In this document: in pieces, positions 3,347 through 39,382 of the stretch
Layout: every line of letters begins with the position of its first letter
Position numbering within the stretch: the stretch's first letter is position 1
From: a virus
Direction: 5' to 3' (one strand)
Virus record (IMG/VR): IMGVR_UViG_3300045988_124381
DNA: 56,455 bases
The notes under the pieces: model-generated
What the model was told of the DNA's origin: nothing
The model's database searches: none
What the model saw: only the letters and a program-made list of their open reading frames with translations
Program-made: the position numbers and the translations under genes

Positions 3347-3405
3347 CATATCGAAACTAAGATACGAAACAAATATAGTAAAAACCTACTAAAAAGCACA
3401 CGATT

Positions 3406-3726
3406 ATGAAAAGAAATGTATTGCACGAGATTATGAGCCTTGCATGGCAATTTGTAAAACGCAATGGATTTACAATGAGTGAAGCGCTCAAATGCGCTTG
3501 GGCAAACATGAAGCTGAAGGCTGCCATGAAGCAAAAAATAGTAAAGTTCTACTTCAAGAAAGTTGACGGTTCTGTACGCGAAGCATACGGTACACTGAAA
3601 GAAAACCTGATACCAGCAACCAGCGGTGACAACAGAAAGAAGAATGACACCGTTCAGGTGTATTTCGATACAGAGAAACAAGAATACAGATGCTTTAAGA
3701 AAGCTAACCTTTTAAATATCGCATGA
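3406..3726 (+). CDS. SH3-like beta-barrel protein (DUF2693/WYL_2-like)
   Basis: VKFYFKKVDGSVREAYGTL resembles the signature of this family; first gene after the operator. Confidence 0.45.
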   Translation: MKRNVLHEIMSLAWQFVKRNGFTMSEALKCAWANMKLKAAMKQKIVKFYFKKVDGSVREAYGTLKENLIPATSGDNRKKNDTVQVYFDTEKQEYRCFKKANLLNIA

Positions 3727-3974: not shown

Positions 3975-4349
3975 CAAATATACCCTGCTGACGGACTGAA
4001 CGGCAACCGATAGCGAGAATCGGGCAGGGTTCTACTTGATTGGTTCTTTGACATGATGGAAATTTTAGGCTTACCGTTAAGCCTGACGTGAAACGGACGA
4101 CTGAGTAGCGATAACGGCTGGGTGAAAAGAGTATGAGTAATGGACTGCACTAAGCAAACGCAGCATACGAATCACACAGATAACAAAAACGACTTATACG
4201 ATTGCAGGTGGCCGTAGGCCGGCTACAAAGACAATCTTCACTGATTAGACACCAGCAAGAACTATATATCCCGTGGCTTATCAAAGGTTTGGTAAGCAGT
4301 AAGGCAACCACCGGAACGCCCACGGGGACGAATTTTAAAACGCACGATT

Positions 4350-4520
4350 ATGAAAAAACTTCTTTTTCTCTGTGCATTGTCTGTACTGGTGATGCACTTC
4401 AATCAAGACCTTTCACCTCTGTATTGGGTTGGTCTTATTGGATTTACATTAACAAGTATATTAATTGCAAAAAGATTAGATGATGAACGAGCTGCAAGAA
4501 ATAATAAAAAGCATCTGTGA
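4350..4520 (+). CDS. Small membrane protein (56 aa), below the ORF-track cutoff
   Basis: Hand translation MKKLLFLCALSVLVMHFNQDLSPLYWVGLIGFTLTSILIAKRL...; ATG lies within a CACGATTATG copy. Confidence 0.45.
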   Translation: MKKLLFLCALSVLVMHFNQDLSPLYWVGLIGFTLTSILIAKRLDDERAARNNKKHL

Positions 4521-4844: not shown

Positions 4845-4920
4845 TGGCAGATAGTTCAGGCGGTAGAACACCATGTATGGGTTAGCATGGAAGTCACGGG
4901 TTCAAGTCCCGTTCTGTCAG
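4845..4920 (+). tRNA. tRNA-like gene with canonical acceptor, D and T arms but an enlarged anticodon loop (8-10 nt); isotype undetermined
   Basis: tggcaga ta gttc aggcggta gaac a ccatg tatgggttag catgg aagtc acggg ttcaagt cccgt tctgtca g; U1:A72 and G73. Confidence 0.6.
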
Positions 4921-4942
4921 CAAACAATCAAATACTAAAACT

Positions 4943-14425: not shown

Positions 14426-14997
14426 AAAAAGAAGAATTATTTTATCTGCTTGGCATAGAAGACATAAGAGACATGCCAGAAGCGATAGAACGAATAATAT
14501 TGGGTGATATTGAGGAGAGAAACCGCATATACCGAGATTTCTTGAAAGTTAACGACTACGACTTGTCATACGATTGGTTCCAGGAGATATACGAAGGGGA
14601 ACTTTCCGAGCGAAAACAGAAGAAGCAGGACTTTACACCAAATGAGTTGGGAGTAATATGCTCACAGCTGACCGATGGTAAAGGTAATGTTCACGAACCT
14701 ACAGCGGGAAACGGTTCGATGATTATAGCTGATTGGTGGCAGCGTTGTCGGCGTTTAATTCCTTGGGAGCATTTCCCATCACAGAATATGGTAACGTGTT
14801 GGGAACTTTCTTCGCGATCAATCCCAATTCTTCTGTTTAACCTCAGCATTCGCGGAATAATGGGATATGTGTATCATGGCGATGTTTTGGAAAATGAAGT
14901 AAAGCAGAAGTACATTCTTCTGAACAGGACAGATGATTCTTTGGGATTTTCAGAGGTTATTAAAGTTGGTATAAATGATATAATTGTAAAAGAATGA
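14422..14997 (+). CDS. N-terminal half of a gamma-class N6-adenine DNA methyltransferase (motifs X and I only)
   Basis: DFTPNELG then HEPTAGNGSMI (SAM motif I) then CWELSSRSIPILLFNLSIRGI. ORF ends before any NPPY/F motif IV. Confidence 0.5.
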   Translation: MKKEELFYLLGIEDIRDMPEAIERIILGDIEERNRIYRDFLKVNDYDLSYDWFQEIYEGELSERKQKKQDFTPNELGVICSQLTDGKGNVHEPTAGNGSMIIADWWQRCRRLIPWEHFPSQNMVTCWELSSRSIPILLFNLSIRGIMGYVYHGDVLENEVKQKYILLNRTDDSLGFSEVIKVGINDIIVKE

Positions 14998-15929
14998 AAT
15001 TGAATGAGGTTTACAACCTTTGGGTTGTATCGAAAACTAGACAAGTAAAGAAATCGACCATTGCCACGTATAAGATGATATATGCAAATTCAATATCACC
15101 GGAGTTTGGGAATATGGATATTAAGATTTTAAACAAGAAATGTGTTCAACCCGTCATTTATCGTTGGCTAGATGAAGGTAGGTCGGCTAAATATTGTAAT
15201 GATATTCTGATAGTTTTCCGAATGATAATGCGCTATGCATCTGAAGAAATGGATGAAGATATACCGGACATACATTGGAGGATGGTTTTCCCGACAACTT
15301 CAAAAAGAGCTTTTGATAAAGTAGAAAGATACACACAAGAAGAATATCGTAAGATTGTCAATTATGCAATTGAAAATCCATCTCCAAGGAATCTCGGTAT
15401 ATTATTGACTATATGCACAGGAATGCGTATAGGGGAAATATGTGCTCTGCAATGGAAAGACGTAGATTTTGACACAAAGACAATACAAGTATACAGAACA
15501 ATAGAGCGTATTTATAACCATGATACAAAAGTGTCTGAAATAATATTTAGTACTCCGAAAACATCCTCATCACAACGGCGTATTCCAATCATGAGGGAAA
15601 TTATTCCAATGATGAAAAAGTTTTGTGCTGTAAGTAAACCGGAATATTATGTATGTACGTGTTCCGAGAATTTTATCGAACCAAGAACGTACAGAAATTA
15701 TTATCGGTCATTTATCCTTGAGAAGGTCAAGCTTGGGCATGTGATTAAATTTCATGGATTGCGTCACACCTTTGCTACGGTCATGATTGAAAATAAGGTA
15801 GATATTAAAACAACATCTGTGATACTTGGTCATTCAGATGTCAGTACTACATTAAATGTTTATGTGCATCCGTCTGAAGAAGCTAAAAGAAGTGCTATGA
15901 ATGTAGGATTAAAGAAATTATTTAAGTAA
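14994..15929 (+). CDS. Tyrosine recombinase (XerC/phage-integrase type, 311 aa)
   Basis: GMRIGEICALQWKDVD (Arg box), HGLRHTFAT, LGHSDVSTTLNVYVH (His/Tyr box). Confidence 0.85.
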   Translation: MKLNEVYNLWVVSKTRQVKKSTIATYKMIYANSISPEFGNMDIKILNKKCVQPVIYRWLDEGRSAKYCNDILIVFRMIMRYASEEMDEDIPDIHWRMVFPTTSKRAFDKVERYTQEEYRKIVNYAIENPSPRNLGILLTICTGMRIGEICALQWKDVDFDTKTIQVYRTIERIYNHDTKVSEIIFSTPKTSSSQRRIPIMREIIPMMKKFCAVSKPEYYVCTCSENFIEPRTYRNYYRSFILEKVKLGHVIKFHGLRHTFATVMIENKVDIKTTSVILGHSDVSTTLNVYVHPSEEAKRSAMNVGLKKLFK

Positions 15930-17000: not shown

Positions 17001-17108
17001 ATGAAAGCCATATCCATCAAACAGCCGTGGGCGAGCTTAATCGCTCACGGTATCAAAGACATGAAAAAAATTGAGTTATTGTTTTATTTTTGTGTATTCT
17101 TTATCTGA
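17001..17108 (+). pseudogene. 5-prime remnant of an ASCH-domain gene, truncated after about 20 codons
   Basis: MKAISIKQPWASLIAHGIKD is a typical ASCH N-terminus. The frame then runs into AT-rich sequence (MKKIELLFYFCVFFI stop) and overlaps the convergent gene. Confidence 0.6.
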
Positions 17109-17630
17109 TGGCCTAGTAAGATTCCATTGACAGATTAAGACTTTACGATTTTTCTTATACCATTTTTTTATTGATTTTAGATATTTATTTTCAATATTTC
17201 CGTTGAGTTGAGTACATTCCATTATAGTGAATGCTGCTTCTTGTTCATCAATTAATACATGGAAGTGTGGTGGTAAGTGGTCGTTTGTACGTATTTCTAT
17301 TTTTATTTTATTATTTATTAAGTCTATAGCCCTGCATGGACCAGGGCATATTTCTGGTGTGAATGGAATCTTATATTTTATCCTTAAGTATATGCGGTAT
17401 AAATTAGGCAATAAGAAAAATGGAAGTAATAGGAGATGTAAGGAACCCCAAAATATAATGAAAAAAGTAAGCACGAAATAGCCCAACAATTTTTCATACC
17501 ATTTATTTTTGTTTACATGAGTAATATTTTTATTGTCTTCATCATATAATCCATATTCAATATCTTCTGATATAGTAAGCCTTAAATTTTCTTCTAAATA
17601 ATCCTTTATTATTTGAATTCCTTTTTCCAT
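17076..17630 (-). CDS. Membrane-anchored DUF4160-domain protein
   Basis: C-terminal NDHLPPHFHVLIDEQEAAFTI is the DUF4160 signature; a hydrophobic segment LLGYFVLTFFIIFWGSLHLLLLPFFLL precedes it. Confidence 0.7.
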   Translation of the reverse strand: MEKGIQIIKDYLEENLRLTISEDIEYGLYDEDNKNITHVNKNKWYEKLLGYFVLTFFIIFWGSLHLLLLPFFLLPNLYRIYLRIKYKIPFTPEICPGPCRAIDLINNKIKIEIRTNDHLPPHFHVLIDEQEAAFTIMECTQLNGNIENKYLKSIKKWYKKNRKVLICQWNLTRPSDKEYTKIKQ

Positions 17631-17753
17631 GTAACTTTTTTATCAAATCATACAAAAAACATACCAAAGTTTTTACTGACAGGCCTTGTCAGTGCTTTGT
17701 GGATACCCGGTAACTGCTTTGTGGCGGTTATCGGGTTATTCACAGATAAAGTA

Positions 17754-19115
17754 TTATTTGCGTACATTTTCAAATGCCAAGTTTATGCATTTATTTATAT
17801 GTTGTTTATCTAGAGATTCTATTTCACCTTTTCTATTTATATTTTCTATTATTGATATTTTATCGATTGATGGAGACTTGTCATTGTACCAAAAAGACTG
17901 ATTGTGTGTTTGGTAATAATTTAAGTCCTTTATGGAATAGCTTTTTGAGTTATATTTAAAGCTATTTGATGGTGTTAGATAATAAATCATTAAGAACACA
18001 TTCACGCAATTTAATAGACTTAATTCAGGTAATTTAAATAAATATTCCTTTATAGTAATAATATCATTTATACCTATCATTTTAAATAAAGCAATAGTGT
18101 AAGTTAACGGTGACTTAGTATTGAATTTAGTTCCTAAATAATCGTTCCCTATATAGTCCCTTTCAATAATATAACTATCCATCCCACTTATAATGCTTTT
18201 AATGGTTCTAATTGATAAAGAGCTTATTTTCTTCTCAAGTTCATTCGACATATTGTTGAAATCTTCTTTTGATAAACAACATTTATTTGATATTATTTTA
18301 TATAAATATTCTTGTGCTACTTTATTTATAGAATAATAAAATGGTTGATGACTTATAAATTTATTAATATAACCATTGTAATTAGCATTTTTCCCGTAGC
18401 AATGGTAGAAGATATTTTCGGTTGTACTGTTATCAAAAATCGTAATAATATTATCAAAATCAAACTTATTACTATAGTTCGATTTCTCATATAAATGTTC
18501 GTCTATATGAGCTCCTAATACATTCAATATGCGAAACAAATGTGCAGGGTCAATACGGTCAAGGTCTTCTATGATTAGGACTGTTTTATAACCAGATGAT
18601 TTGATGTATTTTAATGTTTCTATAATAAGTTCTGTGTAGCCATCATGTTCGTATAACCCTCCTTTTTGTGATGTAAACCAAGATTCATATTTTTTGAATG
18701 TCGTTTGTTCTTCTTTATATTTCTTAGCAAATGTCTTCCCTTTTTCAAGAATTTTATTTAGAATTTCTCCTTTGGGCAAACAAGAAATCAAGAAACTTAT
18801 TACTTCTTTTAGACTTTCCAAAGTGAATATAGAGTTTGTAATACCTTCAAAATCAATTGGATTTAATTTTCCATCTTTAGCCAATTGAAAAAGTATATCT
18901 CGTTTTATGTATTCGAAAATATCCTGGTTGTCTGCAATCGAATAATTGATAGGGTATAAGGTTATAAAATAATAATCATCTTTATAGAGTTTCTTGAATT
19001 CATTAAGAAAGAATGTCTTCCCATCTCCAAATTTTGCAGAGAAGATAGTACGTTCATTTATTTCAAGATGAGATTTGAAATCAGATAATTCTTTGTCTAT
19101 TGGTATGAGTTCCAT
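17754..19115 (-). CDS. KAP-family P-loop NTPase
   Basis: Walker A SAKFGDGKT, Walker B LIIEDLDRIDPAHLFRILNVL typical of KAP NTPases; start taken at MELIPID (19115). Confidence 0.7.
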   Translation of the reverse strand: MELIPIDKELSDFKSHLEINERTIFSAKFGDGKTFFLNEFKKLYKDDYYFITLYPINYSIADNQDIFEYIKRDILFQLAKDGKLNPIDFEGITNSIFTLESLKEVISFLISCLPKGEILNKILEKGKTFAKKYKEEQTTFKKYESWFTSQKGGLYEHDGYTELIIETLKYIKSSGYKTVLIIEDLDRIDPAHLFRILNVLGAHIDEHLYEKSNYSNKFDFDNIITIFDNSTTENIFYHCYGKNANYNGYINKFISHQPFYYSINKVAQEYLYKIISNKCCLSKEDFNNMSNELEKKISSLSIRTIKSIISGMDSYIIERDYIGNDYLGTKFNTKSPLTYTIALFKMIGINDIITIKEYLFKLPELSLLNCVNVFLMIYYLTPSNSFKYNSKSYSIKDLNYYQTHNQSFWYNDKSPSIDKISIIENINRKGEIESLDKQHINKCINLAFENVRK

Positions 19116-19246
19116 AATATTAAGATTAAATTGTTTCAGTAAAATTATATATAAAAATTGGATTCTGAAAGTAAGATTAATAAACTGTAAACCTTTTATA
19201 CCATAAAACAAATTCTATATAATCAATCAATTAAAATCAACAAATT

Positions 19247-19819
19247 ATGAATCTAAATGAACTAAGAGATAAAGCCTACCGTAACGCAGTTGCCCACGGA
19301 TGGCACGAAGAAAACCTAAGTGATGAACATTTCCTCTGTCTGGTCATATCCGAACTGATGGAAGCGGTGGAAGCTGACCGCAAAGGAAAACATGCTGATA
19401 CCAAAAAGTTCAATCAGGAAATGGATTACTACATACACGAGATGAAGCTGTATGGAGAAAACTATGATAAAGCCTATCGTGATACGTTTGAATATTATCT
19501 TAAAGATAGTGTGGAGGATGAACTTGCCGACGCCTGCATCCGGTTGTTGGATTTGGCAGGATTGAGAGGGTATGATTTGGACAAATTGGACTACGAAGGA
19601 AGCGATACAGTGGACTATTCCGAAATGGATTTTACGGAATCCATGTACAGAATATGTGTGTATGTAACTGACGGATTCTACAACGAATATTATGACACTC
19701 TTCTGAATGAGATATTCGCTTTCTGCAAAGACAGAAGTATAGACATCTTCTGGTTTATCAATCAGAAGATGAAGTACAATGAACTACGCCCATATAAGCA
19801 CGGAGATAAAAGCTACTGA
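19247..19819 (+). CDS. MazG-like all-alpha NTP pyrophosphohydrolase
   Basis: AHGWHEE...ISELMEAVEA...EDELADACIRLLDLAG pattern of phage MazG-like enzymes. Confidence 0.55.
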   Translation: MNLNELRDKAYRNAVAHGWHEENLSDEHFLCLVISELMEAVEADRKGKHADTKKFNQEMDYYIHEMKLYGENYDKAYRDTFEYYLKDSVEDELADACIRLLDLAGLRGYDLDKLDYEGSDTVDYSEMDFTESMYRICVYVTDGFYNEYYDTLLNEIFAFCKDRSIDIFWFINQKMKYNELRPYKHGDKSY

Positions 19820-19821
19820 CC

Positions 19822-20178
19822 ATGAAACACATATTCTACGCCTTAATCATTCTGCAAGCCCTGTACGAGCTTGTGAAGCTGTTTAGATGTAAATCCCTTT
19901 ACCGGCATGTGAAAGTATTCCAGAAGCTGGATAAGGCATCAAAAAAATGGTATCTGATGGCGCATCCGTGGTTTCATGTTGCGCTGCTTATAGATACTAT
20001 CGGGATTTTACTTTTGGGTATAGGATTGTTTTCAAGTCAATGGGTGTGTTTCCTCATTATCTTGGCCATGAGTTTTAGTCAGATCCAAAAGCTAGGAGCA
20101 TGGGCGGTATTTCTGGACAGCCTGATTACGGTCATCATCTACGTATTTGCCATCCTTAACGCATATCATTTGTCATAA
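19822..20178 (+). CDS. Membrane protein (3-4 TM)
   Basis: Multiple hydrophobic helices. Confidence 0.5.
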   Translation: MKHIFYALIILQALYELVKLFRCKSLYRHVKVFQKLDKASKKWYLMAHPWFHVALLIDTIGILLLGIGLFSSQWVCFLIILAMSFSQIQKLGAWAVFLDSLITVIIYVFAILNAYHLS

Positions 20179-20272
20179 AACAAAAAAAGGGAGCCAGCCC
20201 ACACGATTAGAAGCCAACTCCCACACACGATTATGATGCAAATATACTAATTCATTCTAAAACTATCGAACT

Positions 20273-20710
20273 ATGACAAAAGAATTTTCATCAATCGTGG
20301 AGTTGAAATCTATACGTGAACAGAAATCAAGATTATCGGAAAGAGAGCAGGAGCTTTCGTTACCAGTCCTGACTGATCTGTCGCTTATTCCGGAGATTTA
20401 CGGCTGGTTCAAGGAGATCCTTTCCGGGATGGACTGCCCTCCCAATCCTGAGAGCGTTACTCAGCGGAAGAAGTTCCTCTTCATCGTTCTGTTCCTGTTC
20501 GCCCCCAGCGTGCTGGCCGGCGGACGGCTGCCGAACGGTATCCGGGCAGAAATTTCCGGTGTGTTCCCGGATGTCTCCCCATGTGTAATATCGAACAATA
20601 TCGCCGATGTTTCCTTTATTTACCAGCAATATAAGGATTTCAGGCAGGATATAGAGTATCTTTACAATCAGATTTTAGAAAGGTTGAAAGTCAAAGAACT
20701 GATCAAGTAA
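20273..20710 (+). CDS. Hypothetical protein
   Basis: ORF in the array; central hydrophobic stretch. Confidence 0.45.
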   Translation: MTKEFSSIVELKSIREQKSRLSEREQELSLPVLTDLSLIPEIYGWFKEILSGMDCPPNPESVTQRKKFLFIVLFLFAPSVLAGGRLPNGIRAEISGVFPDVSPCVISNNIADVSFIYQQYKDFRQDIEYLYNQILERLKVKELIK

Positions 20711-20740
20711 CAGAATGTTTTTAATGGGGATAAAGTCCCT

Positions 20741-20989
20741 TTGTTTGAATTTTTATGTCTAACAAATTTAAATTTTAAAGGCCGAGTCAGAAGAAGAACA
20801 AAATCAGGTTGGGAAATAGCTCGACAAGCCGACAGATTAGCTCAACAGCGTTATGGAAGTAACTTTGACAATCCTAATAATCTTGTAAATAGGATTGCAG
20901 GCAGGTATCTTGGAAACTTCAATAGAAATGGAACCAGTTGGAATACACAAGTTTCAAAACGTATTTACATGGGACTTAATGATGGGTAA
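20741..20989 (+). CDS. Small Arg-rich protein ending RIYMGLNDG (start codon uncertain; frame is open from 20711)
   Basis: No in-frame ATG near the 5-prime end; paralog of 27650-27835. Confidence 0.45.
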   Translation: MFEFLCLTNLNFKGRVRRRTKSGWEIARQADRLAQQRYGSNFDNPNNLVNRIAGRYLGNFNRNGTSWNTQVSKRIYMGLNDG

Positions 20990-21011
20990 TTAGTAAAAGA
21001 ACTAATCGAGT

Positions 21012-21045
21012 AAAAAAGCCGGAAGCATAAAGCTCCGGCTTTTTG
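21012..21045. terminator. Bidirectional terminator between convergent genes
   Basis: aaaaa-agccgga-loop-tccggct-ttttt. Confidence 0.7.
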
Positions 21046-21046
21046 T

Positions 21047-21445
21047 TTACATTCTAAAATTTTTACCGCGTCCAATTCTTTCAAGGTATGTATCTGAAGA
21101 TTCTGTGGGTAAACAGATCGGAATGTTAAAACGAACTTTAGATATGGTGGAATTCTGTGCAGTAGATTCTGATGAAACTCCTGCATTTATAATTTTAGCA
21201 ATTCCAATTCCTGACTTTTCACCTGAATTTTCAGTAACAGATAGAGCTATATCCATATCTATATGCTGAACTCGTGGAGCTGGAATATAATAACCTGATT
21301 TAGGAGGTAATGCATATTCATTATCAGAGCCTCTATAGCAATCAGGATTAATTAAGACATTCTGGTCTTTGTATTTCTTTTGCACTTCTAACACTCCATC
21401 TATAATTTGGCTAATAGTTTCAGTAATAAATTCTTTAAGTTCCAT
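21047..21445 (-). CDS. Small hypothetical protein (possibly trypco2-like effector-associated fold)
   Basis: Pattern of alternating beta-like segments around SGEKSGIGIAKIINAGVS; weak impression only. Confidence 0.3.
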   Translation of the reverse strand: MELKEFITETISQIIDGVLEVQKKYKDQNVLINPDCYRGSDNEYALPPKSGYYIPAPRVQHIDMDIALSVTENSGEKSGIGIAKIINAGVSSESTAQNSTISKVRFNIPICLPTESSDTYLERIGRGKNFRM

Positions 21446-21515
21446 AATTATTTTCCTTTTTCTATTTTTATTTTATACAATAAACCCCGAACTACGAAGA
21501 ACGGGGCTGAAATAG

Positions 21516-22361
21516 TTATTTATAGATGTAATTATATCTTAGCTCGGATTTGTTATCCTTGTAACTATATGAAACACATATTTTATTTATAGTGCCATCT
21601 TCATTATAAAAATAGTCATAATATGTCCAAGAATCTGAATATGATTCCTTTTTCGATTTTCTTTGAATACGACCTGAAGAGTCATACTGGTATTCATATT
21701 TTTGCTCTATTGATTCTTTTCCAGTATCCCCATTTATATAAGTTTCCTGAAGTAAATTATCATGTGAATCATATTCAAAAATGAAGCTACCAAACAGAGA
21801 GCCATCATCAATATTTGTTTTTTCTATATAGATATTTTTCCCTTCATACCTATATTCGCTTATATAGCCAAAATTGTTGCTAACCCAAATGTCTTTTTCT
21901 ACTGTTTTTATCAATCTTTTTTGACTATCATATTCGTATGTCCATTCTTCATTCAGGTTTCCATCGTCATCATATACCAGCATGCGTGACACGGAGTCAA
22001 TGTTGTTATATTCATATTTACGTTTTTTTTCAAACAAAGTAAACGTATATTCGTTCATTTCCACTACACGCTTTTTGTCGTCGTATTCATATTTGTAATT
22101 GCAATCGATCCTACCATCCAATAAAGCGTTATAGTAGTTGGTGGTTTTTTCTTGCAATGTTCCGTCTGGATTATAGATATACTGTTCGTAAAGTTCTCCA
22201 TATTCATTTATCTCTCCAAATTTCTTTTCATGTTCGTTTATTACAATTTCAGACAGAACTTTATTTCCATTATTTCCTCCGGGTTCTCCATCACCATCGC
22301 TACTGCACCCCACAAAACACAAAGCCACCAGTATAGGCAAAATAAATAACATTTTCTTCAT
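21516..22361 (-). CDS. Lipoprotein with YD/RHS-like repeats
   Basis: MKKMLFILPILVALCFVGCSS lipobox; recurring YEYD...(R/K)(L/V) units (YKYEYDDKKRVV, YEYDSQKRLI, FEYDSHDNLL, YQYDSSGRIQ). Confidence 0.65.
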   Translation of the reverse strand: MKKMLFILPILVALCFVGCSSDGDGEPGGNNGNKVLSEIVINEHEKKFGEINEYGELYEQYIYNPDGTLQEKTTNYYNALLDGRIDCNYKYEYDDKKRVVEMNEYTFTLFEKKRKYEYNNIDSVSRMLVYDDDGNLNEEWTYEYDSQKRLIKTVEKDIWVSNNFGYISEYRYEGKNIYIEKTNIDDGSLFGSFIFEYDSHDNLLQETYINGDTGKESIEQKYEYQYDSSGRIQRKSKKESYSDSWTYYDYFYNEDGTINKICVSYSYKDNKSELRYNYIYK

Positions 22362-22380: not shown

Positions 22381-22674
22381 TTAAACATCCATTTCCAATA
22401 ACTTTCTTAAATCCTCAAACGAGTGAACTTCATAAATAGTTCCTTTTACTTTTACAAAGCCGTTCACTTCGGAATCAGGTGTATTTCTTACAAATAGCTC
22501 CGAAATATCCACCTCTAAAGCATTTGCAATACGTTCTAAAGATTGTAATTGCGGATAATCACCTCTTAATGTCTTATTAAGACTAATATCAGATATACCC
22601 ATCTTATCAGCCAAATCTTTTTGAGTAAGACCCTTAGACTGGCAAAGTTCTTTTATCCTTGTTCTAAAATCCAT
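22381..22674 (-). CDS. XRE-family HTH transcriptional regulator
   Basis: GLTQKDLADKMGISDISLNKTLRGD helix-turn-helix. Confidence 0.75.
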   Translation of the reverse strand: MDFRTRIKELCQSKGLTQKDLADKMGISDISLNKTLRGDYPQLQSLERIANALEVDISELFVRNTPDSEVNGFVKVKGTIYEVHSFEDLRKLLEMDV

Positions 22675-22704: not shown

Positions 22705-22864
22705 GGTGTTTATACTATATAATACAATAAAGAGTGAAAAATAAATCCAAGTAGTTTTATTATTAACATAAATTAAGTATGCAAATATTGCGTAATTAAA
22801 CTATATAGTATTACTTTGTACTATCAAATAAAACGAAGTAGTATAATTTTTAATACGCACGATT

Positions 22865-23063
22865 ATGAAAGAGTATCAAGACGCAACTGTTGAATGTAAA
22901 AAAAATAATATGCAACCCATGTGCATTAGATGAGTACGAAGTCACTATAAGGCCTACTAATGGTAAGCCTGAATATGTAACATACACTTATGGTAGTCTA
23001 TTTGAGAGCAATGAATCTATCTGTGATAGAATTTATCGTCAATGGATAAAAGAGAGTAAGTGA
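22865..23063 (+). pseudogene. Small gene interrupted by a +1 frame change at an A8 tract (22898-22905)
   Basis: ATG in a CACGATTATG copy. Frame stops at 22931. The next frame continues CNPCALDEYEVTIRPTNGKPEYVTYTYGS... to 23063. A7 would give one 65-aa ORF. Confidence 0.45.
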
Positions 23064-23130
23064 TAAGTTTAACCAGCAGGGCGAAAGCCCTGCAATTACA
23101 CACGATTATTAATTTTTAATACACACGATT

Positions 23131-23997
23131 ATGAAGACATTAAAAGAACAAGTAGAAGAAATCAAGAACATGAAAGGTTCTAAGTCAGCAAAGAAAGCAG
23201 CTTTCGTCAAGTTGGGTTTGAGAAAGTACGAAGTTGAACTTCTTATGTCTGAACTGCCTAAGACTATCAGAGAAACGCACAAGTTTACTTTTGGCGTTGA
23301 GATTGAATGCCTGGTAGCTGCAAACCTTATGCGTGAATGTGCTACAAGAAATGAAATGCCTTTTCGCTATGAGGGCTACAACCACACAGACAACAACCAC
23401 TACTACAAGTTTGTATCTGATTCTTCTATTAGAGGTGAAAATCCTATAGAATGTGTTTCACCGGTTCTTACTGGTAAGGCAGGTATGAAAAGCCTAGAAA
23501 CCTGCTGCAAAGCTTTAAATGAGGCAGGTGCACAAGTGAATATATCTACTGGTTTACACGTTCACATAGGGGCTGCAAGCCTCTCAGATGAAGCTTATAT
23601 CAATGTTTTCAAGAACTATCAGAAGCTAGAGAGAGTGATTGATACTTTCATGGCACGATCAAGACGAGCAAACAACAGTCAGTGGTGCAGAACACTTCAA
23701 GGTTTAAGCTTTGAATGTTGCATTACTAAGCATGATGTTCTAAGTATTATGAGAGGTAATAGATATTTTAAGGTTAATGCCTGCTCTTATGCTCGTCACA
23801 ACACGATAGAGTTCAGGCAGCATCAAGGTTCTACAGATTTCGAGAAAATTTCTAACTGGGTGAATTTCTGTGCTAAGCTAGTAGCTTGGTCTAAGAAGAA
23901 CGTACTAAGTTCAGAGGTTTTTTCAATTGCAGAAATACCTTTCTTGACAGCGAAAGAAAAGTCATTCTTTAAATCACGTGCTGAGGTTCTTGCATGA
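23131..23997 (+). CDS. Amidoligase_2 family (glutamine-synthetase-like COOH-NH2 ligase)
   Basis: FGVEIE, IECVSPVL, STGLHVHIG, NTIEFRQHQGS signature blocks. Confidence 0.8.
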   Translation: MKTLKEQVEEIKNMKGSKSAKKAAFVKLGLRKYEVELLMSELPKTIRETHKFTFGVEIECLVAANLMRECATRNEMPFRYEGYNHTDNNHYYKFVSDSSIRGENPIECVSPVLTGKAGMKSLETCCKALNEAGAQVNISTGLHVHIGAASLSDEAYINVFKNYQKLERVIDTFMARSRRANNSQWCRTLQGLSFECCITKHDVLSIMRGNRYFKVNACSYARHNTIEFRQHQGSTDFEKISNWVNFCAKLVAWSKKNVLSSEVFSIAEIPFLTAKEKSFFKSRAEVLA

Positions 23998-24527
23998 ACC
24001 TCACACGATATAATTTGCTTGATATGTGCTGTATTATTTATAAACCAAAAGGTGTCCAGATGCCAACGCTGGACATCTTAAATAAGGTTCAGAGAATCAA
24101 TCATCATGGTTATGGCTTTGTTTCTTCTAAGCATAGATATAAGACTATGGATTATCAAAAGTTTTTAGTTCATCTTTCAAAGGTGGGTATTGAAGAAGAA
24201 TGTATCATTCACATGAGGTGGGCAACACATGGTTCTAAGTGTAGAAAGAACTGTCACCCGTTTGTCGAGAATGGCGTTTATTTTGCTCACAATGGTGTTT
24301 TGCCTATTCAGTCAGTAAACGATATGACAGATAGCGAAATCTTCTTCAGAAATCAAGTTTACCCTCTTGTAATGAAATATGGGTATGAAGCAAAGGTAAC
24401 AGAATCCATGATGATGGCTGTCGCTGGCAGTTCTAAATTCGCCATGATGTACAAAGGCAAAGTAAAGCTATATGGTGATTATACGAAATTGAACGGTGTA
24501 TATTATTCTAATTTAAGATGGCTATGA
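23994..24527 (+). CDS. Class II (Ntn) glutamine amidotransferase
   Basis: MCCIIYK (Cys nucleophile after Met at 24024, or after a 10-aa propeptide if ATG 23994 is used), NHHGYGF, HMRWATHGS, NCHPF, FAHNGVL, TDSEIFF. Confidence 0.75.
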   Translation: MNLTRYNLLDMCCIIYKPKGVQMPTLDILNKVQRINHHGYGFVSSKHRYKTMDYQKFLVHLSKVGIEEECIIHMRWATHGSKCRKNCHPFVENGVYFAHNGVLPIQSVNDMTDSEIFFRNQVYPLVMKYGYEAKVTESMMMAVAGSSKFAMMYKGKVKLYGDYTKLNGVYYSNLRWL

Positions 24528-24688
24528 AAAGAAAATATTTTGACACTAAACAAGCCGCTGTCAAAACTAAGAATAAGCGTTCTAAAAATGGAGAACAAGG
24601 CTTGCATGTATTTAAAATGCCAAAAGGATCAAGAAAAAATGGAAAATTTGTCGTATGCACTGAGATTGAATATTTGAATACATACTAA
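24518..24688 (+). CDS. Small basic hypothetical protein (56 aa)
   Basis: Hand translation MAMKRKYFDTKQAAVKTKNKRSKNGEQGLHVFKMPKGSRKNGKFVVCTEIEYLNTY; start lies in a repeated junction motif. Confidence 0.4.
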   Translation: MAMKRKYFDTKQAAVKTKNKRSKNGEQGLHVFKMPKGSRKNGKFVVCTEIEYLNTY

Positions 24689-24719
24689 TCGGTAGTCTTT
24701 GTGACTGCCTTAATTTAAG

Positions 24720-24929
24720 ATGGTTATGAAAAGAGAAAAATTAAAGGTTAAAGCATCAGATGTAAGAAGCATAAAAATGAGCGTAAATCCGCCTAAAGTG
24801 GTTGTGGATGCAGGGTATAGAGTGATTCATGACGGTGAAATAAAATGCTGGGTAGGTATAGGCTGGTTGACCGAAGGCAGAGCGTCAAAGAGTGACTATT
24901 ATAAGATACCAGAGGTTGTAAACGGATAA
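24720..24929 (+). CDS. Hypothetical protein
   Basis: Start lies in the repeated junction motif. Confidence 0.45.
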   Translation: MVMKREKLKVKASDVRSIKMSVNPPKVVVDAGYRVIHDGEIKCWVGIGWLTEGRASKSDYYKIPEVVNG

Positions 24930-24941
24930 TTTAAGATAGCT

Positions 24942-25271
24942 ATGAGAAATGTAGATATTGACGTAATGCGAGAGATTTTAGAAGAGCATGGAATTTTAGT
25001 GAATGAAGATGTTGCTAAATCCATAACAGAGGATTTTGTATGCCATTTAGAAGTATGTAGAGAAATGGATGTATCACAATTTAGAGGATGTAATACCGAA
25101 TCTGATACAGAGAAAATCATGCGATTAGAAGCAGAACTGAAGAAGGTTAAAAGAGAGCTTTCAAAGGCATCTACAGAGAATGAAGTCTATAGAGATAATG
25201 TTATGAAAAGACATAACGCATCGTCTGTATGGATTGAAGATGGAGTGATAAAATATAGTTATGGGGTATGA
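24942..25271 (+). CDS. Hypothetical protein
   Basis: Start lies in the repeated junction motif. Confidence 0.45.
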   Translation: MRNVDIDVMREILEEHGILVNEDVAKSITEDFVCHLEVCREMDVSQFRGCNTESDTEKIMRLEAELKKVKRELSKASTENEVYRDNVMKRHNASSVWIEDGVIKYSYGV

Positions 25272-25441
25272 ACGAGAAAGAAATCCTGCAAGAAATAATC
25301 GAGTGGCTGGGTAATGATACCAGCTACTTGTCTACAAGAACAGACTATGGCCGGGGTTATAAAAACGGCATAGAGCGTGCAAAGGCAATAGTCGAGGAAA
25401 TAATCAGTGAACATGATCCTGATTTATTAGCAAACAATTAG
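25268..25441 (+). CDS. Small hypothetical protein (57 aa)
   Basis: ATGA overlap with the upstream stop; hand translation MNEKEILQEIIEWLGNDTSYLSTRTDYGRGYKNGIERAKAIVEE... Confidence 0.4.
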   Translation: MNEKEILQEIIEWLGNDTSYLSTRTDYGRGYKNGIERAKAIVEEIISEHDPDLLANN

Positions 25442-25514: not shown

Positions 25515-25587
25515 CGCGGGTTAGAGCAGTGGTCAGCTCGTCACTTTGACTTGGTGAAGGCCGGTGGTTCGAATCCACCACCCGCAA
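25515..25587 (+). tRNA. tRNA with anticodon GAC (Val) on an initiator-tRNA-like scaffold
   Basis: cgcgggt ta gagc agtggtca gctc g tcact ttgactt ggtga aggcc ggtgg ttcgaat ccacc acccgca a. C1xA72 mismatch, A11:U24; close to E. coli tRNA-fMet outside the anticodon arm. Confidence 0.75.
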
Positions 25588-25618
25588 CGAAATATTAACT
25601 TATAAATTTTACACGATT

Positions 25619-25978
25619 ATGGAAATACTTACGCTTATCATCAAACAGAAGTTCTTTGACGAAATCTTGTCAGGTAAGAAAACTCAAGAGTTCAGAGAGA
25701 TTAGACCTACAACTCAGAAGAAATACTGCCAACTGGATGCCGATGGTTATTGTGTCGAAATAGACGGCATTTTACAGCCCCGACACTATGATGCTATTCA
25801 GTTCTTTGTAGGCTACAATAAAGACAGATCCAGTGCATTGGTTGAAGTCAAAGACGCAAAGATCGAATTGTTTGAAGATGAGAATCACAATTTAATTGAG
25901 TACACCTGTCAGGGCGAAATATACTTGGCCGCACAGGTCGTTTATGACCTTGGCCGAGTGATAGAAAAGCATGTTTAA
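25619..25978 (+). CDS. ASCH (PUA-like) domain protein
   Basis: ILTLIIKQKFFDEILSGKKTQEFREIR N-terminal ASCH pattern. Confidence 0.6.
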   Translation: MEILTLIIKQKFFDEILSGKKTQEFREIRPTTQKKYCQLDADGYCVEIDGILQPRHYDAIQFFVGYNKDRSSALVEVKDAKIELFEDENHNLIEYTCQGEIYLAAQVVYDLGRVIEKHV

Positions 25979-25999: not shown

Positions 26000-26161
26000 G
26001 TCAGAACAAACAGAAGTACATTTTCAACGAGTAACTACCGTGGGGGCCGTACTGGATTGACAGACCCTAACACCGGTAGAACTTCACAGGGTGGGAGATA
26101 TATTACCCGCCGGCAGCAGTATTATAACGTCCGCACAGGACTTGGTATGAGTGGCGGATAA
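26000..26161 (+). CDS. Arg/Gly-rich small ORF with no ATG/GTG start; first sense codon is GTC
   Basis: Open from GTC 26000 (right after in-frame TGA) to TAA 26159-26161, which shares an A with the next ATG. The only canonical alternative start is TTG 26057. Confidence 0.35.
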   Translation, partial: VRTNRSTFSTSNYRGGRTGLTDPNTGRTSQGGRYITRRQQYYNVRTGLGMSGG

Positions 26162-26832
26162 TGACACTGCAAGAGAGAACATACAGCTATATTGACCTCG
26201 TCAGACAAAAGACTGACGGGGTTTTGCTGTTTCTGTCCTTGGGTAAGGATTCTTTAGTATTACTGGATATGATCTATCCGAAGTTTGAAAGGATAGTCTG
26301 CGTGTTCATGTACTTTGTTAAAGGTTTAGCGCACATCGAAAGATGGGTTGGATGGGTAAAAGCTAAATATCCGAAGATAGAGTTTGTTCAGGTGCCCCAC
26401 TGGAACCTTACTTACATTCTTCGTGGTGGGATGTATTGCGTGCCAAACCCGAAAGTAAAGCTTCTGAAACTGGCCGATGTGGTGAAGGCCATGCAACTCA
26501 AATACGGCCTTTACTACACGTTCTTGGGTATGAAGAAGGCCGACGGCATGAACCGTCGTCTTATGCTGAAAGGCTATGAAGTCAACGGATACGAGAACAA
26601 CAGTATGTGCTATCCTTTGGCAGATTGGACGCAGAAAGACATCCTGTCCTACATGAAGCAGAACGGGCTGCCGGAGCCTGTCCGGTATTCGCTGAAGGCC
26701 AGTTCGGGTGTAGGGTTCAATTTGGATTGTATGTTATGGCTGGAGAAGAACTACCCGCAGGACTTACAGAAAATTTACAAGGTGTTCCCAATGGCTGAAA
26801 GAATTCTTTGGGAACATAAACAAAAGCAATAG
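26161..26832 (+). CDS. PAPS reductase / PP-loop ATP pyrophosphatase family protein
   Basis: LLFLSLGKDS PP-loop, GMKKADGMNRR, CYPLADWTQKDILSYMKQNGLP. Confidence 0.8.
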   Translation: MTLQERTYSYIDLVRQKTDGVLLFLSLGKDSLVLLDMIYPKFERIVCVFMYFVKGLAHIERWVGWVKAKYPKIEFVQVPHWNLTYILRGGMYCVPNPKVKLLKLADVVKAMQLKYGLYYTFLGMKKADGMNRRLMLKGYEVNGYENNSMCYPLADWTQKDILSYMKQNGLPEPVRYSLKASSGVGFNLDCMLWLEKNYPQDLQKIYKVFPMAERILWEHKQKQ

Positions 26833-26834
26833 GT

Positions 26835-27575
26835 ATGGAACTGAGCAAATACATAAAGAGTGAATCGGTGGAACTTAACCGTTCCGCCATTCATTTTGCA
26901 GATTATAACCCCAGGAAACTTTCTGAGGAAGCCCGAAAGACGTTAAAACGGGGTATCAAGAAGTTCGGGCTGGTTGGAGGTATCGTAGTCAACAAGCGGA
27001 CTGGCCTTACTGTCGTGTCCGGCCACCAGCGCCTGACGGTTATGGATGAGCTCCAGAAATTCCCGGAAAACGATTATAGAATCCGTGTCGATGTGATTGA
27101 CGTGGATGAGAAGCAGGAAAAAGAGTTGAATATCCTGATGAACAACCCGAACGCACAAGGAGCTTGGGACTATGACGCTTTGGCTCGATTAGTTCCGGAC
27201 ATTGATTACCAGGATGCAGGTCTGACTGCCGCCGATCTGAATATGATTGGCTGTGATTTTCTTCTCCAGACAGAAGAAGAAAGTTCTATCGCGGAAGCTT
27301 TGGAGGATATGATGGCACCGGTAACGGAGCAGAAAGAAGCCGAGAAAGCCGCCAAGCAGATGGAAAGAGCCGAGAAGGTGGCCCACATGAAGGAAGTCAA
27401 GCAGCAGGTGAAAGATGCAGCCCAGAAGCAGGCACAAGATATGGACGCTTATCTCATGCTTTCCTTCGATACGTTTGAAGCTAAGGCAGCTTTTTGTGAA
27501 AGATTTGGATATGATCCATATTCCAAGTTCATCAAGGGTGAGGTATTCGATGAACAGGTAGAAAGAATTGAATGA
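26835..27575 (+). CDS. ParB/Srx N-terminal (ParB-like nuclease) domain protein
   Basis: ADYNPRKLS...LKRGIKKFGLVGGIVVN...VVSGHQRL. Confidence 0.75.
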   Translation: MELSKYIKSESVELNRSAIHFADYNPRKLSEEARKTLKRGIKKFGLVGGIVVNKRTGLTVVSGHQRLTVMDELQKFPENDYRIRVDVIDVDEKQEKELNILMNNPNAQGAWDYDALARLVPDIDYQDAGLTAADLNMIGCDFLLQTEEESSIAEALEDMMAPVTEQKEAEKAAKQMERAEKVAHMKEVKQQVKDAAQKQAQDMDAYLMLSFDTFEAKAAFCERFGYDPYSKFIKGEVFDEQVERIE

Positions 27576-31579: not shown

Positions 31580-31610
31580 TTTGTTTTTAGTACCAAATTT
31601 AGTACCTTTG
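31580..31610 (+). promoter_or_regulatory. Promoter TTTG-N19-TACCTTTG for hicAB-1
   Basis: The spacer contains a direct repeat of tagtacc; ATG 18 nt downstream. Confidence 0.6.
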
Positions 31611-31627
31611 CATAAAACGAAAACACA

Positions 31628-31885
31628 ATGGGGTCAAAAGAGAAATTGATAGAACGGTTCAAGAAGCTGCCAAAGGATTTTACCTTTGAAGAAACCCTTT
31701 CTTTACTTAGTTACTTCGGCTATACCAAGCATAACAAAGGGGCCACTTCCGGTTCCCGTATCCGTTTCAAGAACGAAGAAACCGGGCAATACATAGACAT
31801 ACATCGTCCACACCCTGGAAGTATAATGAAAGCGTGGATGATGAAAGCGATTTATCAGCATTTGAAAAATAACGGTTTAATATAA
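31628..31885 (+). CDS. hicA: HicA-family toxin
   Basis: GATSGSRIRFKN...YIDIHRPHPGSIMK pattern; followed by HicB. Confidence 0.6.
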   Translation: MGSKEKLIERFKKLPKDFTFEETLSLLSYFGYTKHNKGATSGSRIRFKNEETGQYIDIHRPHPGSIMKAWMMKAIYQHLKNNGLI

Positions 31886-31891
31886 AGGACT

Positions 31892-32254
31892 ATGGATTAT
31901 TTGGAATACAAAGGTTACAAGGGTTCTGTGGAATACAGCAAAGAGGATAATTGCCTTTGCGGTAAAGTACAAGGAATGGGCAACAAAGCCTTGATTCTTT
32001 ATGAAGGGACTACCATTGACGAACTCCGAAAGGATTTTGAAGAAGGGATTGACAGCTATCTCGAAGGATGTAAAGCGGATGGTGTTGAGCCGGTAAAACC
32101 GTTTAGCGGAAAACTCAACCTACGTATGACTTCTGAGCTTCATGCACGTGTGGCTGCATTTGCCGCAAGTACAGGAATGACCATTAATGATTTCATCAAC
32201 AAGGCCATTGTCAATGAATTGGAACATGATTGTATCACTTTAAAAAGAAATTAA
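31892..32254 (+). CDS. hicB: HicB-family antitoxin with RHH C-terminus
   Basis: YKGYKGSVEYSKEDNCLCGKV...FSGKLNLRMTSELHARVAAFAASTGMTINDFINKAI. Confidence 0.8.
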   Translation: MDYLEYKGYKGSVEYSKEDNCLCGKVQGMGNKALILYEGTTIDELRKDFEEGIDSYLEGCKADGVEPVKPFSGKLNLRMTSELHARVAAFAASTGMTINDFINKAIVNELEHDCITLKRN

Positions 32255-38674: not shown

Positions 38675-38706
38675 TTTGCTTAATAGTAACGAAAATGTTA
38701 CCTTTG
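38675..38706 (+). promoter_or_regulatory. Promoter TTTG-N20-TACCTTTG for hicAB-2 with ACGTTAC/GTAACG repeats
   Basis: -7 region tacctttgcat is identical to the hicAB-1 promoter. Confidence 0.6.
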
Positions 38707-38733: not shown

Positions 38734-38919
38734 ATGAAGTTTTCAGAGTTTTACAAATTGATTGAGTCAGCAGGCTGGACAATCGAAAAGGGAAAGAAAC
38801 ATCACAAGTATGTTCATCCCGACTTTGACTACTTTATCCCTGTAGGCAGACATCCGGCCAAAGAGATACCTAAAGGTACTCTTGACAGCATGATGAAAAA
38901 GGCGGGGTTAAAGAAGTAA
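38734..38919 (+). CDS. hicA: HicA-family toxin
   Basis: GWTIEKGKKHHKYVHPDFDYFIPVGRHPAKEIPKGTLDSMMKKAGL. Confidence 0.8.
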   Translation: MKFSEFYKLIESAGWTIEKGKKHHKYVHPDFDYFIPVGRHPAKEIPKGTLDSMMKKAGLKK

Positions 38920-38977
38920 AAGAACAGCACCCACTTCGGTGGGTGCATTTAATTGACAAAACTTAAAATACACGATT

Positions 38978-39382
38978 ATGAAGAAGATTCAGGCTATTAT
39001 TGAAAAAGCAGATGATGGAGGAATCTCTATCTATTCTGAAGATGTAAACGGTGCGTATGGCTTTGGGCTTACAGAACAAGAAGCGAAAGAGGACTTTATT
39101 TCTGTTTTAGAGGAACAGGCAGAATATTACAAAGAAAAACATGGTGAATTTCCAAGTTGGTATAAAGCTGGCTATTCTGTGGAGTATGTGTATGACTTAA
39201 GTGGATTTTTTGAGGCATTTCCGTTCATCAATGCCAGTAAGTTCGCAAAGGAAATAGGTTTAAATGAATCTGTGATGCGAAAATATAAAGGCAAGATCGT
39301 AACAGCTTCCGAGAAACAGAAAGCATATATACAATCCAAATACAATGAAATTCTTAAAAGAATGGAACTTGTCAAGTTTTGA
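38978..39382 (+). CDS. hicB: HicB-family antitoxin
   Basis: IQAIIEKADDGGISIYSEDVNGAYGFGLTEQEAKEDF N-terminal HicB fold pattern. Confidence 0.6.
   Translation: MKKIQAIIEKADDGGISIYSEDVNGAYGFGLTEQEAKEDFISVLEEQAEYYKEKHGEFPSWYKAGYSVEYVYDLSGFFEAFPFINASKFAKEIGLNESVMRKYKGKIVTASEKQKAYIQSKYNEILKRMELVKF

Follow-up and report, generated by a model that had tools for sequence, protein, structure and literature searches.

Two adjacent plus-strand genes of the viral sequence IMGVR_UViG_3300045988_124381 (56,455 nucleotides; "the window" hereafter means this whole stretch) encode a predicted amidoligase and a minimal class-II glutamine amidotransferase (GATase), and this pair is the two-gene core of the phage gamma-glutamyl-amide cassette, in a stripped-down Bacteroidales version. 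The pairing is already known, having been described computationally in 2009; the window adds a Bacteroidales-phage member to it, not a new chemistry. We tentatively infer that the pair works as a two-subunit glutamine-dependent amidoligase, a reading that we regard as possible rather than probable. With 56.5 kb at 40% GC, the window represents a temperate tailed phage or prophage of the gut Bacteroidales type, whose genes include those for an S24 CI-like repressor, AAA_24, DUF3127 and NinG proteins, an SF2 helicase and three tyrosine recombinases, together with TerL, portal, head fibre and DUF6706 proteins and two HicAB-like pairs. The amidoligase/GATase locus is composed as follows.

23131..23997, plus strand: amidoligase gene, 288 amino acids (aa), assigned by PF12224, phrog_2443 and the AlphaFold2 (AF2) fold; three-helix bundle (residues 1-42), flexible linker (44-49) and catalytic domain of the glutamine synthetase (GS)/YbdK fold (52-288)
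23998..24023, plus strand: intergenic spacer of 26 nt, with a conserved C[AG]CACGAT element at 24002-24011
24024..24527, plus strand: minimal stand-alone amidohydrolase of the class-II glutamine amidotransferase type (N-terminal nucleophile (Ntn), Cys1), 167 aa

A preliminary description of this locus, made from the letters alone, had called the 288-aa open reading frame (ORF) a GS-like COOH-NH2 ligase on the strength of four sequence blocks. All four were found, at residues 54-59 (FGVEIE), 107-111 (ECVSP), 141-147 (GLHVHIG) and 227-234 (EFRQHQGS), and the call was borne out by profiles and fold alike. Pfam Amidoligase_2 (PF12224) matched with 100.6 bits (cutoff 22, E=1.7e-28) over profile positions 3-245 of 245, and in PHROG the protein matched phrog_2443, 'amidoligase' (E=7e-79). 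The family comprises 4,665 database proteins at E<=1e-5 in a profile search. Among 71 ligase sequences from loci in different species, with 20-93% identity to the window protein, at least 95% conservation was seen for G55, E57, E59, D97, S99, E107, P111, G141, H143, H145, N216, T225, E227, F228, R229 and G233, and E57, E59, E107, H143, H145, E227 and R229 were invariant in set A2. Judged by sequence, the resulting ExE...E...HxH...ExR pattern is the signature of GS-type carboxylate-amine ligases, and by analogy with GS its residues are putatively assigned to the metal and ATP sites. The protein had zero matches among PDB sequences even at E<=10. Its AF2 model (predicted local distance difference test (pLDDT) 89.5), submitted to Foldseek, matched YbdK first (1r8g, E=7.5e-6), then glutamine synthetases, GshA and the gamma-glutamylmethylamide synthetase GmaS. 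The match probability was 1.0 for YbdK (1r8g/1tt4), several GS, GshA and GmaS, and the query TM-score (TMq) was only ~0.45 because the phage domain is smaller. In the BFVD viral structure library, the model matched annotated amidoligases of Arthrobacter, Pseudomonas (tf), Salinivibrio (CW02 also matched), Cellulophaga and crAss-like phages. Sequence and model together identify the first gene product as a predicted ATP-dependent carboxylate-amine ligase of the GS/YbdK fold with an intact metal/ATP site. In the literature that was searchable, no biochemical study of any PF12224 member was found; a paper on the Klebsiella 'amidoligase' CfmP was irrelevant, as it concerns an ATP-grasp enzyme.

The N-terminal three-helix bundle of the ligase is basic and carries a conserved K..L.K[LI]GL motif. 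It is common to the Porphyromonas phage homologs and apparently absent in the Bacillus/Arthrobacter homologs, whose tblastn alignments begin at residue 54. No Pfam family matched it even at E<=10, and a SAP/HeH-type nucleic-acid-binding identity was dropped for that reason.

The second gene had been called a class II Ntn amidotransferase, and this assignment held as well, on the grounds of homologs bearing PF13230, a profile match to GlmS and fold matches, not of the protein's own GATase_4 score (21.8 bits against a curated Pfam cutoff of 23). The majority of its 614 database homologs carry a precomputed PF13230 annotation, and 43 of 44 extended relatives matched GATase_4. Against PDB sequences, the GATase profile (A1) matched the GlmS glutaminase domain (1xff, E=2e-5), stand-alone YafJ-like proteins (3mdn, 1te5) and PurF, its HxRxATHG...HNG block aligning with GlmS residues 68-102 (1xff). 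The AF2 model (pLDDT 88.3, predicted TM-score (pTM) 0.86) matched the GlmS glutaminase domain, EgtC and PurF in Foldseek with probability 1.0 and TMq ~0.55, and proteasome and asparaginase Ntn folds appeared lower in the list. The Met-Cys-Cys, HPF, HNG and TDSE blocks, the last read earlier as SDSE-like, were invariant across 25 diverse aligned homologs (46-96% identity). In the numbering of a longer ORF that begins ten codons upstream, the residues found to be invariant are C12 (residue 2 when counted from the true start), R75, T78, G80, S81, N86-C87-H88-P89-F90, H99-N100-G101 and T112-D113-S114; in that of the 167-aa protein, the key residues are C2, R65, N90-G91 and D103. Alignment and model thereby mark the product as a genuine Cys1 Ntn class-II GATase-type domain with a predicted four-layer alpha-beta-beta-alpha fold. 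The domain is ~60-70 residues shorter than canonical ones and retains the whole glutaminyl/gamma-glutamyl pocket. In class-II GATases such as GlmS and PurF, an Arg binds the free alpha-carboxylate and an Asp the alpha-amino group of the substrate, and Asn-Gly forms the oxyanion hole. Because this Arg and Asp are kept, the predicted substrate should, by analogy, be free glutamine or gamma-glutamyl-X, not a protein-embedded residue.

The GATase domain begins at residue 1 in nearly all of 150 representatives, and no fusion with the ligase was found among the top 150. An apparent fusion in Mycobacterium phage Tesla/Marvin resolved into two neighbouring genes, of which one had been mis-annotated. 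About 30% of the closest representatives (P0310, P0315, P0324, P0338, P0340, P0403) have C-terminal tails of 80-250 residues, which are Tyr/Gly/Ser-rich and of low complexity, then strongly acidic and helical, and contain no Pfam domain.

The start of the GATase gene was revised. It had been proposed that the ligase stop overlaps the GATase start as ATGA, and that the Met-Cys at 24024 is either the actual start or the end of a ten-residue propeptide. The ATGA exists at 23994-23997 but is not the GATase start, and the Met-Cys at 24024 is the true start, so that the propeptide is unnecessary. Met-Cys begins the protein in 22 of the 25 homologs, with the Cys invariant in all; an in-frame ATG ten codons upstream is present in only 50 of 120 related loci and missing from the other 70; across those 120 loci, the 30-nt stretch before Met-Cys shows 1-nt indels and lacks codon periodicity; and residues 1-7 of the long ORF are disordered in the AF2 model. 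On these grounds the coding sequence is 24024-24527, beginning 26 nt past the ligase stop, both the overlapping start and the propeptide are ruled out, and translational coupling by overlap falls with them. Over 68 loci the median length of the spacer between the two genes is 63 nt (range -1 to 611), and the genes overlap in one locus only. The spacer element reads CCTC[GA]CACGATTAAAA in relatives, in which the 3' half of the spacer is variable with 1-nt indels.

The association of the two genes was examined in 78 loci obtained by scanning one genome per species, nearly all from Bacteroidales (Bacteroides, Phocaeicola, Prevotella, Muribaculaceae, Alistipes, Paludibacteraceae). Two loci were cut by contig ends and five contained unrelated GATases such as GlmS, leaving 71 assessable loci. 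In this neighbourhood comparison of homologous pairs, which the preliminary description had suggested, the ligase lay directly upstream on the same strand in all 71 (64 by tblastn and seven by a sensitive hidden Markov model search), and a GATase without a ligase was never seen among them. More distant GATase homologs (47-51% identity) occur on three different backbones, each time directly after an Amidoligase_2 gene: in the first, scaffold and capsid genes come after the pair; in the second, a homing HNH endonuclease separates ligase and GATase, and a gene for a 2,431-aa protein follows the pair; in the third, PAPS-reductase, ParB and terminase genes follow, as in the window. The two genes co-diverge overall (r=0.73), and recombinant lineages exist, the window and locus L097 having ligases that are 89% identical and GATases that are 62% identical. 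When all ORFs were clustered without bias, no third gene proved to be universally conserved in the Bacteroidales loci, and the cyclotransferase GGACT was not detected in any of the 78. Both genes belong to phage-specific families and are not recent host-derived copies.

Outside this set the ligase is found with other partners or none. It occurs without a GATase inside the structural region of Porphyromonas gingivalis phages; with GGACT nearby and no GATase in Bacillus phage 031MP004 (gp40/gp44); with both GGACT and GATase in Arthrobacter phage Waltz (gp94-96); with a natural GATase-GGACT fusion protein in phage C75C1 (PF06094 E=2.7e-21 plus GATase_4); and directly beside a GATase in Mycobacterium phage Marvin (gp105-106). 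The partners in these cultured phages are all enzymes handling gamma-glutamyl-nitrogen bonds. The actinophage and Firmicute-phage modules resemble the window pair in having a homologous ligase (28-37% identity) and, in Waltz and Marvin, the order ligase then GATase; they differ in including GGACT, separate or fused to the GATase, in having GATases of other subfamilies or with C-terminal extensions, and in having ligases apparently without the N-terminal three-helix domain.

The statements of the preliminary description that earlier phage surveys had noted the pairing and that its substrate is not established were both upheld by the literature. Annotations of the pairing exist for LUZ24-like phages (PMC3890496), phage tf (PMC3517423), OM43 phages (PMC10580990), Pseudoalteromonas podoviruses (PMC5498523), PhiM6 (PMC6256558) and P. 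aeruginosa phage U17 (PMC11945000), and all of them go back to Iyer et al. 2009 (Mol Biosyst) and Hardies et al. 2013 (J Virol). As quoted in PMC4819975, the second of these studies presents the cassette as 'metabolizing gamma-glutamyl amide linkages', and the Marvin paper, as cited in PMC10580990, proposes secondary-metabolite synthesis. The cassettes compared here were those of phiEco32, LUZ24, PaP3, tf, RIO-1, PSA-HP1 and PhiM6, described as putative peptidoglycan-modification cassettes. According to papers that cite these studies, they share with the window an Amidoligase_2 gene beside a class-II GATase gene, both products being predicted to be cytoplasmic and their function being a prediction only. 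They differ in comprising 5-7 genes, with the addition of GGCT, an ATP-grasp enzyme and a second COOH-NH2 ligase to the two genes of the window, in lying in early regions of lytic podoviruses instead of a temperate Bacteroidales siphovirus-type element, and in having GATases of 315-486 aa instead of a 167-aa minimal domain. The N-terminal three-helix domain of the window ligase is a further difference. A Pfam scan that took in essentially all window ORFs found no GGACT/GGCT, ATP-grasp enzyme or second COOH-NH2 ligase, and a GGCT hidden among the small ORFs was ruled out, there being neither a Pfam nor a tblastn signal.

On the two-subunit reading, the pair would be an accessory enzyme module, complete in itself, that a temperate Bacteroidales phage carries. 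The Ntn subunit would convert glutamine to glutamate and ammonia, and the ligase would phosphorylate a carboxylate of a cytoplasmic host molecule and then capture the ammonia, for a net reaction of R-COOH + Gln + ATP -> R-CONH2 + Glu + ADP + Pi. The most plausible target would be a cell-envelope precursor (peptidoglycan stem peptide or surface-polysaccharide uronate), which would give lysogenic conversion or superinfection exclusion; this final step is speculation taken over from the literature. In phages without a GATase, the ligase alone would use free ammonia, like the NH3-dependent forms of other amidotransferases. The families and folds of both proteins, the Gln-binding residues of the GATase, the linkage in 71 of 71 loci and the recurrence of the gene order on different backbones and in Marvin and Waltz count for this reading, as do the moron-like position of the pair (see below) and the absence of PADLOC matches for both proteins. 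That the GATase is never alone and the ligase sometimes is would be the pattern expected of an accessory glutaminase subunit. The two separate polypeptides, the lack of a ligase-GATase fusion and the gene order would be explained because the catalytic Cys must be residue 1. As no third gene is conserved, the amidotransferase reading is also the sole one that would make a two-gene module chemically self-sufficient. A similar division of labour is described for MurT/GatD, which amidates D-iso-glutamate in peptidoglycan with a separate glutaminase and an ATP-dependent ligase subunit whose adjacent genes are co-transcribed (PMC3267633). The folds are unrelated, MurT having the Mur-ligase fold and GatD being a class-I triad glutaminase, and the likeness is one of possible working, not of family.

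Several points weigh against the two-subunit reading and bear at the same time on its main rival. The independent recombination of the two genes, seen in L097, speaks against a tightly co-adapted ammonia tunnel. GATase_4 is the best Pfam family for the second gene, and EgtC (4zfl/4zfk/4zfj) equals GlmS as a structural match. The only characterised GATase_4 member that we know of is EgtC, which is a gamma-glutamyl amidohydrolase and not an ammonia donor. We know of no characterised GS-fold ligase that takes ammonia from a class-II glutaminase partner, and all characterised GS-fold enzymes known to us activate the gamma-carboxylate of glutamate. The occurrence of GGACT as partner, or part of the partner, of the ligase elsewhere and the C75C1 fusion point to cleavage of gamma-glutamyl amides, not to ammonia supply.

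The rival in question, which we consider rather unlikely, is a module that adds and removes gamma-glutamyl groups in the manner of EgtA/EgtC or PuuA/PuuD. The ligase would join the gamma-carboxylate of glutamate to an amine target, and the Ntn enzyme, or GGACT elsewhere, would later remove the gamma-glutamyl group, resulting in transient masking, sequestration or recycling of an amine (polyamine, amino sugar or lysine side chain). It accords with the top folds of the ligase (YbdK/GCS2, GS, GshA, GmaS), all of which activate the glutamate gamma-carboxylate, with the GATase_4 and EgtC matches of the second gene, with GGACT alternating or co-occurring as partner and being fused to the GATase, and with the independent recombination of the two genes. 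The PF12224 entry in Pfam, which we take to name the partner as a 'GAT-like thiol peptidase', and the wording of Hardies et al., as quoted above, lean the same way. The ergothioneine enzymes EgtA/EgtC likewise combine a GS/GCS2-fold ligase with a stand-alone GATase_4 Cys1 Ntn amidohydrolase, EgtC being among the best structural matches of the window GATase and YbdK/GCS2 the best for the ligase. However, the Egt pathway needs the intervening EgtB and EgtD, neither of which is linked to the window pair, the identity is only ~15%, and the phage GATase domain is ~60 residues shorter. If ligase and hydrolase both act on one bond, ATP would be spent in a futile cycle unless another enzyme acts between them, whereas the 71 Bacteroidales loci have no third conserved gene and the window has no GGACT, ATP-grasp enzyme or further COOH-NH2 ligase. 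Moreover, the 167-aa domain is smaller than EgtC and has no obvious pocket for a large leaving group, a comparison of lengths only.

The substrate families of both enzymes, which are of the glutamine/glutamate type, also raise the idea of auxiliary metabolic genes for nitrogen or amino acids, which would interconvert glutamine, glutamate and ammonia or make a small gamma-glutamyl peptide to aid replication or lysogen fitness. Such a role has been proposed for OM43 phages (PMC10580990) and, on the basis of growth data that are only indirect, for Phage-ZRK32 (PMC10945688). For the window pair it is improbable, as GS-like synthesis and a glutaminase would cancel out; as both proteins are far from the housekeeping GS, GlmS and PurF, with local NCBIfam similarity only, far below cutoffs; and as phage-specific families that are not recent host copies are unlike typical auxiliary metabolic genes.

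The genes that follow the pair bear on two further explanations. A module of genes for a 253-aa protein, a 151-aa protein and the capsid follows it in 20-25 loci, and the ASCH-like, PAPS-reductase, ParB, TerS, TerL and portal clusters are each found in ~17-24 loci. GS-fold ligases include PafA and Dop, PafA being the Pup ligase, and a PafA-like isopeptide ligase could tag proteins or peptides or modify virion proteins, with the Ntn enzyme processing or reversing the bond. The pair lies directly upstream of scaffold/capsid genes in ~25 loci, the Porphyromonas phage ligase lies inside a structural module, and the extra three-helix domain could dock a macromolecule, all of which would suit such a function. 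We nevertheless hold it to be more doubtful than a metabolic role, since the Arg and Asp kept in the GATase pocket for a free alpha-carboxylate and alpha-amino group would recognise free Gln or gamma-Glu-X, the adjacent small ORFs are not conserved, and the downstream context varies between head and packaging modules, as for a moron at a module boundary.

The preliminary description had also raised a combined pathway, possibly acting on RNA or DNA, formed by the pair and the genes within the next 3.5 kb. These include the following features.

25515-25588, plus strand: tRNA gene (Rfam 55.8 bits; Val with anticodon GAC by ARAGORN)
26161-27575, plus strand: PAPS-reductase-like and ParB-like genes, often after an ASCH-like phrog_625 gene

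The tRNA and the PAPS_reduct-family (PP-loop) and ParB-like proteins were present as described, but the small ORFs, at 24518-25441, are four and not three, and the ASCH label of the phrog_625 protein found no support in Pfam or NCBIfam. A DNA or tRNA modification pathway uniting the pair with the tRNA, the ASCH-like protein, the PAPS-reductase-type PP-loop ATPase and the ParB-like protein is very improbable. Each of the four small ORFs is conserved in at most one other locus. PAPS-reductase/ParB genes occur in only 21-22 of the 78 loci, at +1.4 to +5 kb or -5 to -8 kb, and are absent in L081-L086 and in two of the three distant backbones. Because they stand on either side of the pair yet always next to the terminase genes TerS/TerL, they are, with the ASCH-like gene, packaging-module genes unlinked to the pair, and the proposed link of the pair to them, to the small ORFs and to the tRNA was dropped on these co-occurrence statistics. 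The Pfam scan of the window found no 5-HMUDK, aGPT-Pplase, dUMP hydroxymethylase, DpdA or QueC, and the link to DNA hypermodification was dropped for lack of these marker genes. In favour of such a pathway, Lee et al. report that some metagenomic contigs have amidoligase and amidotransferase genes next to those for thymidine hypermodification (PMC8989533). The ASCH-like gene follows the GATase in ~13 loci, and the basic N-terminal helical domain of the ligase is left unexplained; against this, that domain has no Pfam match and the ASCH call no Pfam support. The PAPS-reductase-like and ParB-like genes recall IbrA/IbrB- or DndC/DndB-like pairs, and ParB-methyltransferase fusions (phrog_498, PADLOC MTase_II) are matched by the ParB-like protein in their N-terminal part.

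Upstream, the pair is bordered by minus-strand genes.

22381..22674, minus strand: divergent XRE/Cro-CI-type helix-turn-helix (HTH) gene (Pfam HTH_3, E=9e-12)
17076-22361, minus strand: accessory block just upstream of the amidoligase/GATase pair

Homologs of the XRE HTH gene occur in 44 of 74 loci, and in 38 of these they lie no more than 3 kb away, in most cases on the other strand; the divergent gene is a frequent neighbour of the pair, not an obligatory one. The accessory block encodes a DUF4160 protein, a 453-aa protein without a family match, a 132-aa protein and an RHS-repeat lipoprotein, and looks like a moron or cargo island; none of its proteins was matched in PADLOC. The position of the pair, with minus-strand accessory genes on one side and the late operon on the other, suggests a moron-like region, in which a dedicated divergent XRE regulator is often present. 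PADLOC matched neither the amidoligase nor the GATase, only the generic HTH neighbour being matched, to regulator models, and a defence-system assignment of the pair was dropped. In two of the loci, an HNH/NUMOD4 homing endonuclease gene lies exactly between ligase and GATase (L085 6459-6995, L086 1021-1557), and the same arrangement has been reported for Pseudomonas phage UFV-P2 (ORF23-25). This shared insertion suggests that the ligase/GATase junction is a recurrent homing site.

Several short elements surround the start of the amidoligase gene.

22865-23063, plus strand: small ORF upstream of the amidoligase, beginning with a CGCACGATTATG element
23076..23093, plus strand: perfect hairpin GCAGGGC-GAAA-GCCCTGC without a U-tract, between the small ORF and the amidoligase
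23099..23133, plus strand: paired CACACGATTAT copies 23 nt apart, the second abutting the amidoligase ATG
3397-3407, 4341-4351, 20200-20234, 22856-22866, 23099-23132, 25610-25620 and 38969-38979, plus strand: CACACGATTAT sites

The window has 13 copies of the 11-nt element CACACGATTAT(G), where 1.84 would be expected, and CACACGATTAT abuts the ATG of seven plus-strand ORFs located after intergenic gaps. The genes concerned are those for WYL_2, the amidoligase, the ASCH-like protein and the HicB-like protein, and small ORFs. The element is doubled at two places with copies 23-24 nt apart, and a degenerate copy before the GATase start is kept in relatives. It could be a phage-specific 5' leader, a translation-initiation element or a regulator binding site; likewise, CACACGATTATG may be a leader or operator. 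The small ORF starting with CGCACGATTATG is, after 22 codons, out of frame with a 57-aa ORF (22890-23063), the junction being an A8 run at 22900-22907, as would fit a frameshift or a sequencing error in the homopolymer. The hairpin at 23076-23093 was not called as a terminator, and scans for sigma-70 promoters and terminators gave nothing exceeding shuffled sequences. The Bacteroides-type promoter pattern (TTTG...TAnnTTTG) is enriched in the window, with no exact match upstream of the ligase.

Other features of the window lie further from the pair.

14994-15929 (plus strand), 51264-52457 (plus strand) and 55092-56339 (minus strand): tyrosine-recombinase/integrase genes
31628-32254 and 38734-39382, plus strand: HicA/HicB-like toxin-antitoxin pairs inside the structural module
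4845-4921, plus strand: second tRNA-like gene, identity undetermined by ARAGORN, four-base anticodon (gggt), overlapping small ORFs

As the last two integrase genes (51264-52457 and 55092-56339) flank the end of the structural module, the window may span the junction of two mobile elements or contain a nested element. The Bacteroides-type promoter pattern precedes each HicAB-like pair (31580-31610 and 38675-38706), and a HicAB pair also neighbours the Porphyromonas phage amidoligase. The tRNA at 25515-25588 has a normal cloverleaf fold, a U (pyrimidine) at position 37 and no encoded CCA, and a C1-A72 mismatch, an initiator-like feature, tops its acceptor stem. Its DNA is ~80% identical to the 'tRNA-Met' of Vibrio phage phi-Grn1 and to a region of Bacteroides phage BS-TP2.

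Members of the amidoligase family abound in the prophages of Bacteroidales from human and animal guts, and in the Bacteroidales version the cassette of 5-7 genes is cut to two indispensable ones. With only two genes and two small soluble proteins, this is the simplest system for finding the substrate, and the value of the locus is that it offers the simplest experimental entry to a widespread, uncharacterised phage enzyme pair. In its boldest form, which taken as a whole we think unlikely, the two-subunit reading would make the pair the first case of a GS-fold synthetase served by a separate minimal class-II Ntn glutaminase, which in gut Bacteroidales prophages would amidate or gamma-glutamylate an envelope or macromolecular target selected by the clade-specific three-helix domain, altering the phage susceptibility or immune visibility of the lysogen. 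If the target is an envelope component, lysogenic conversion by this module would be widespread in the gut microbiome.

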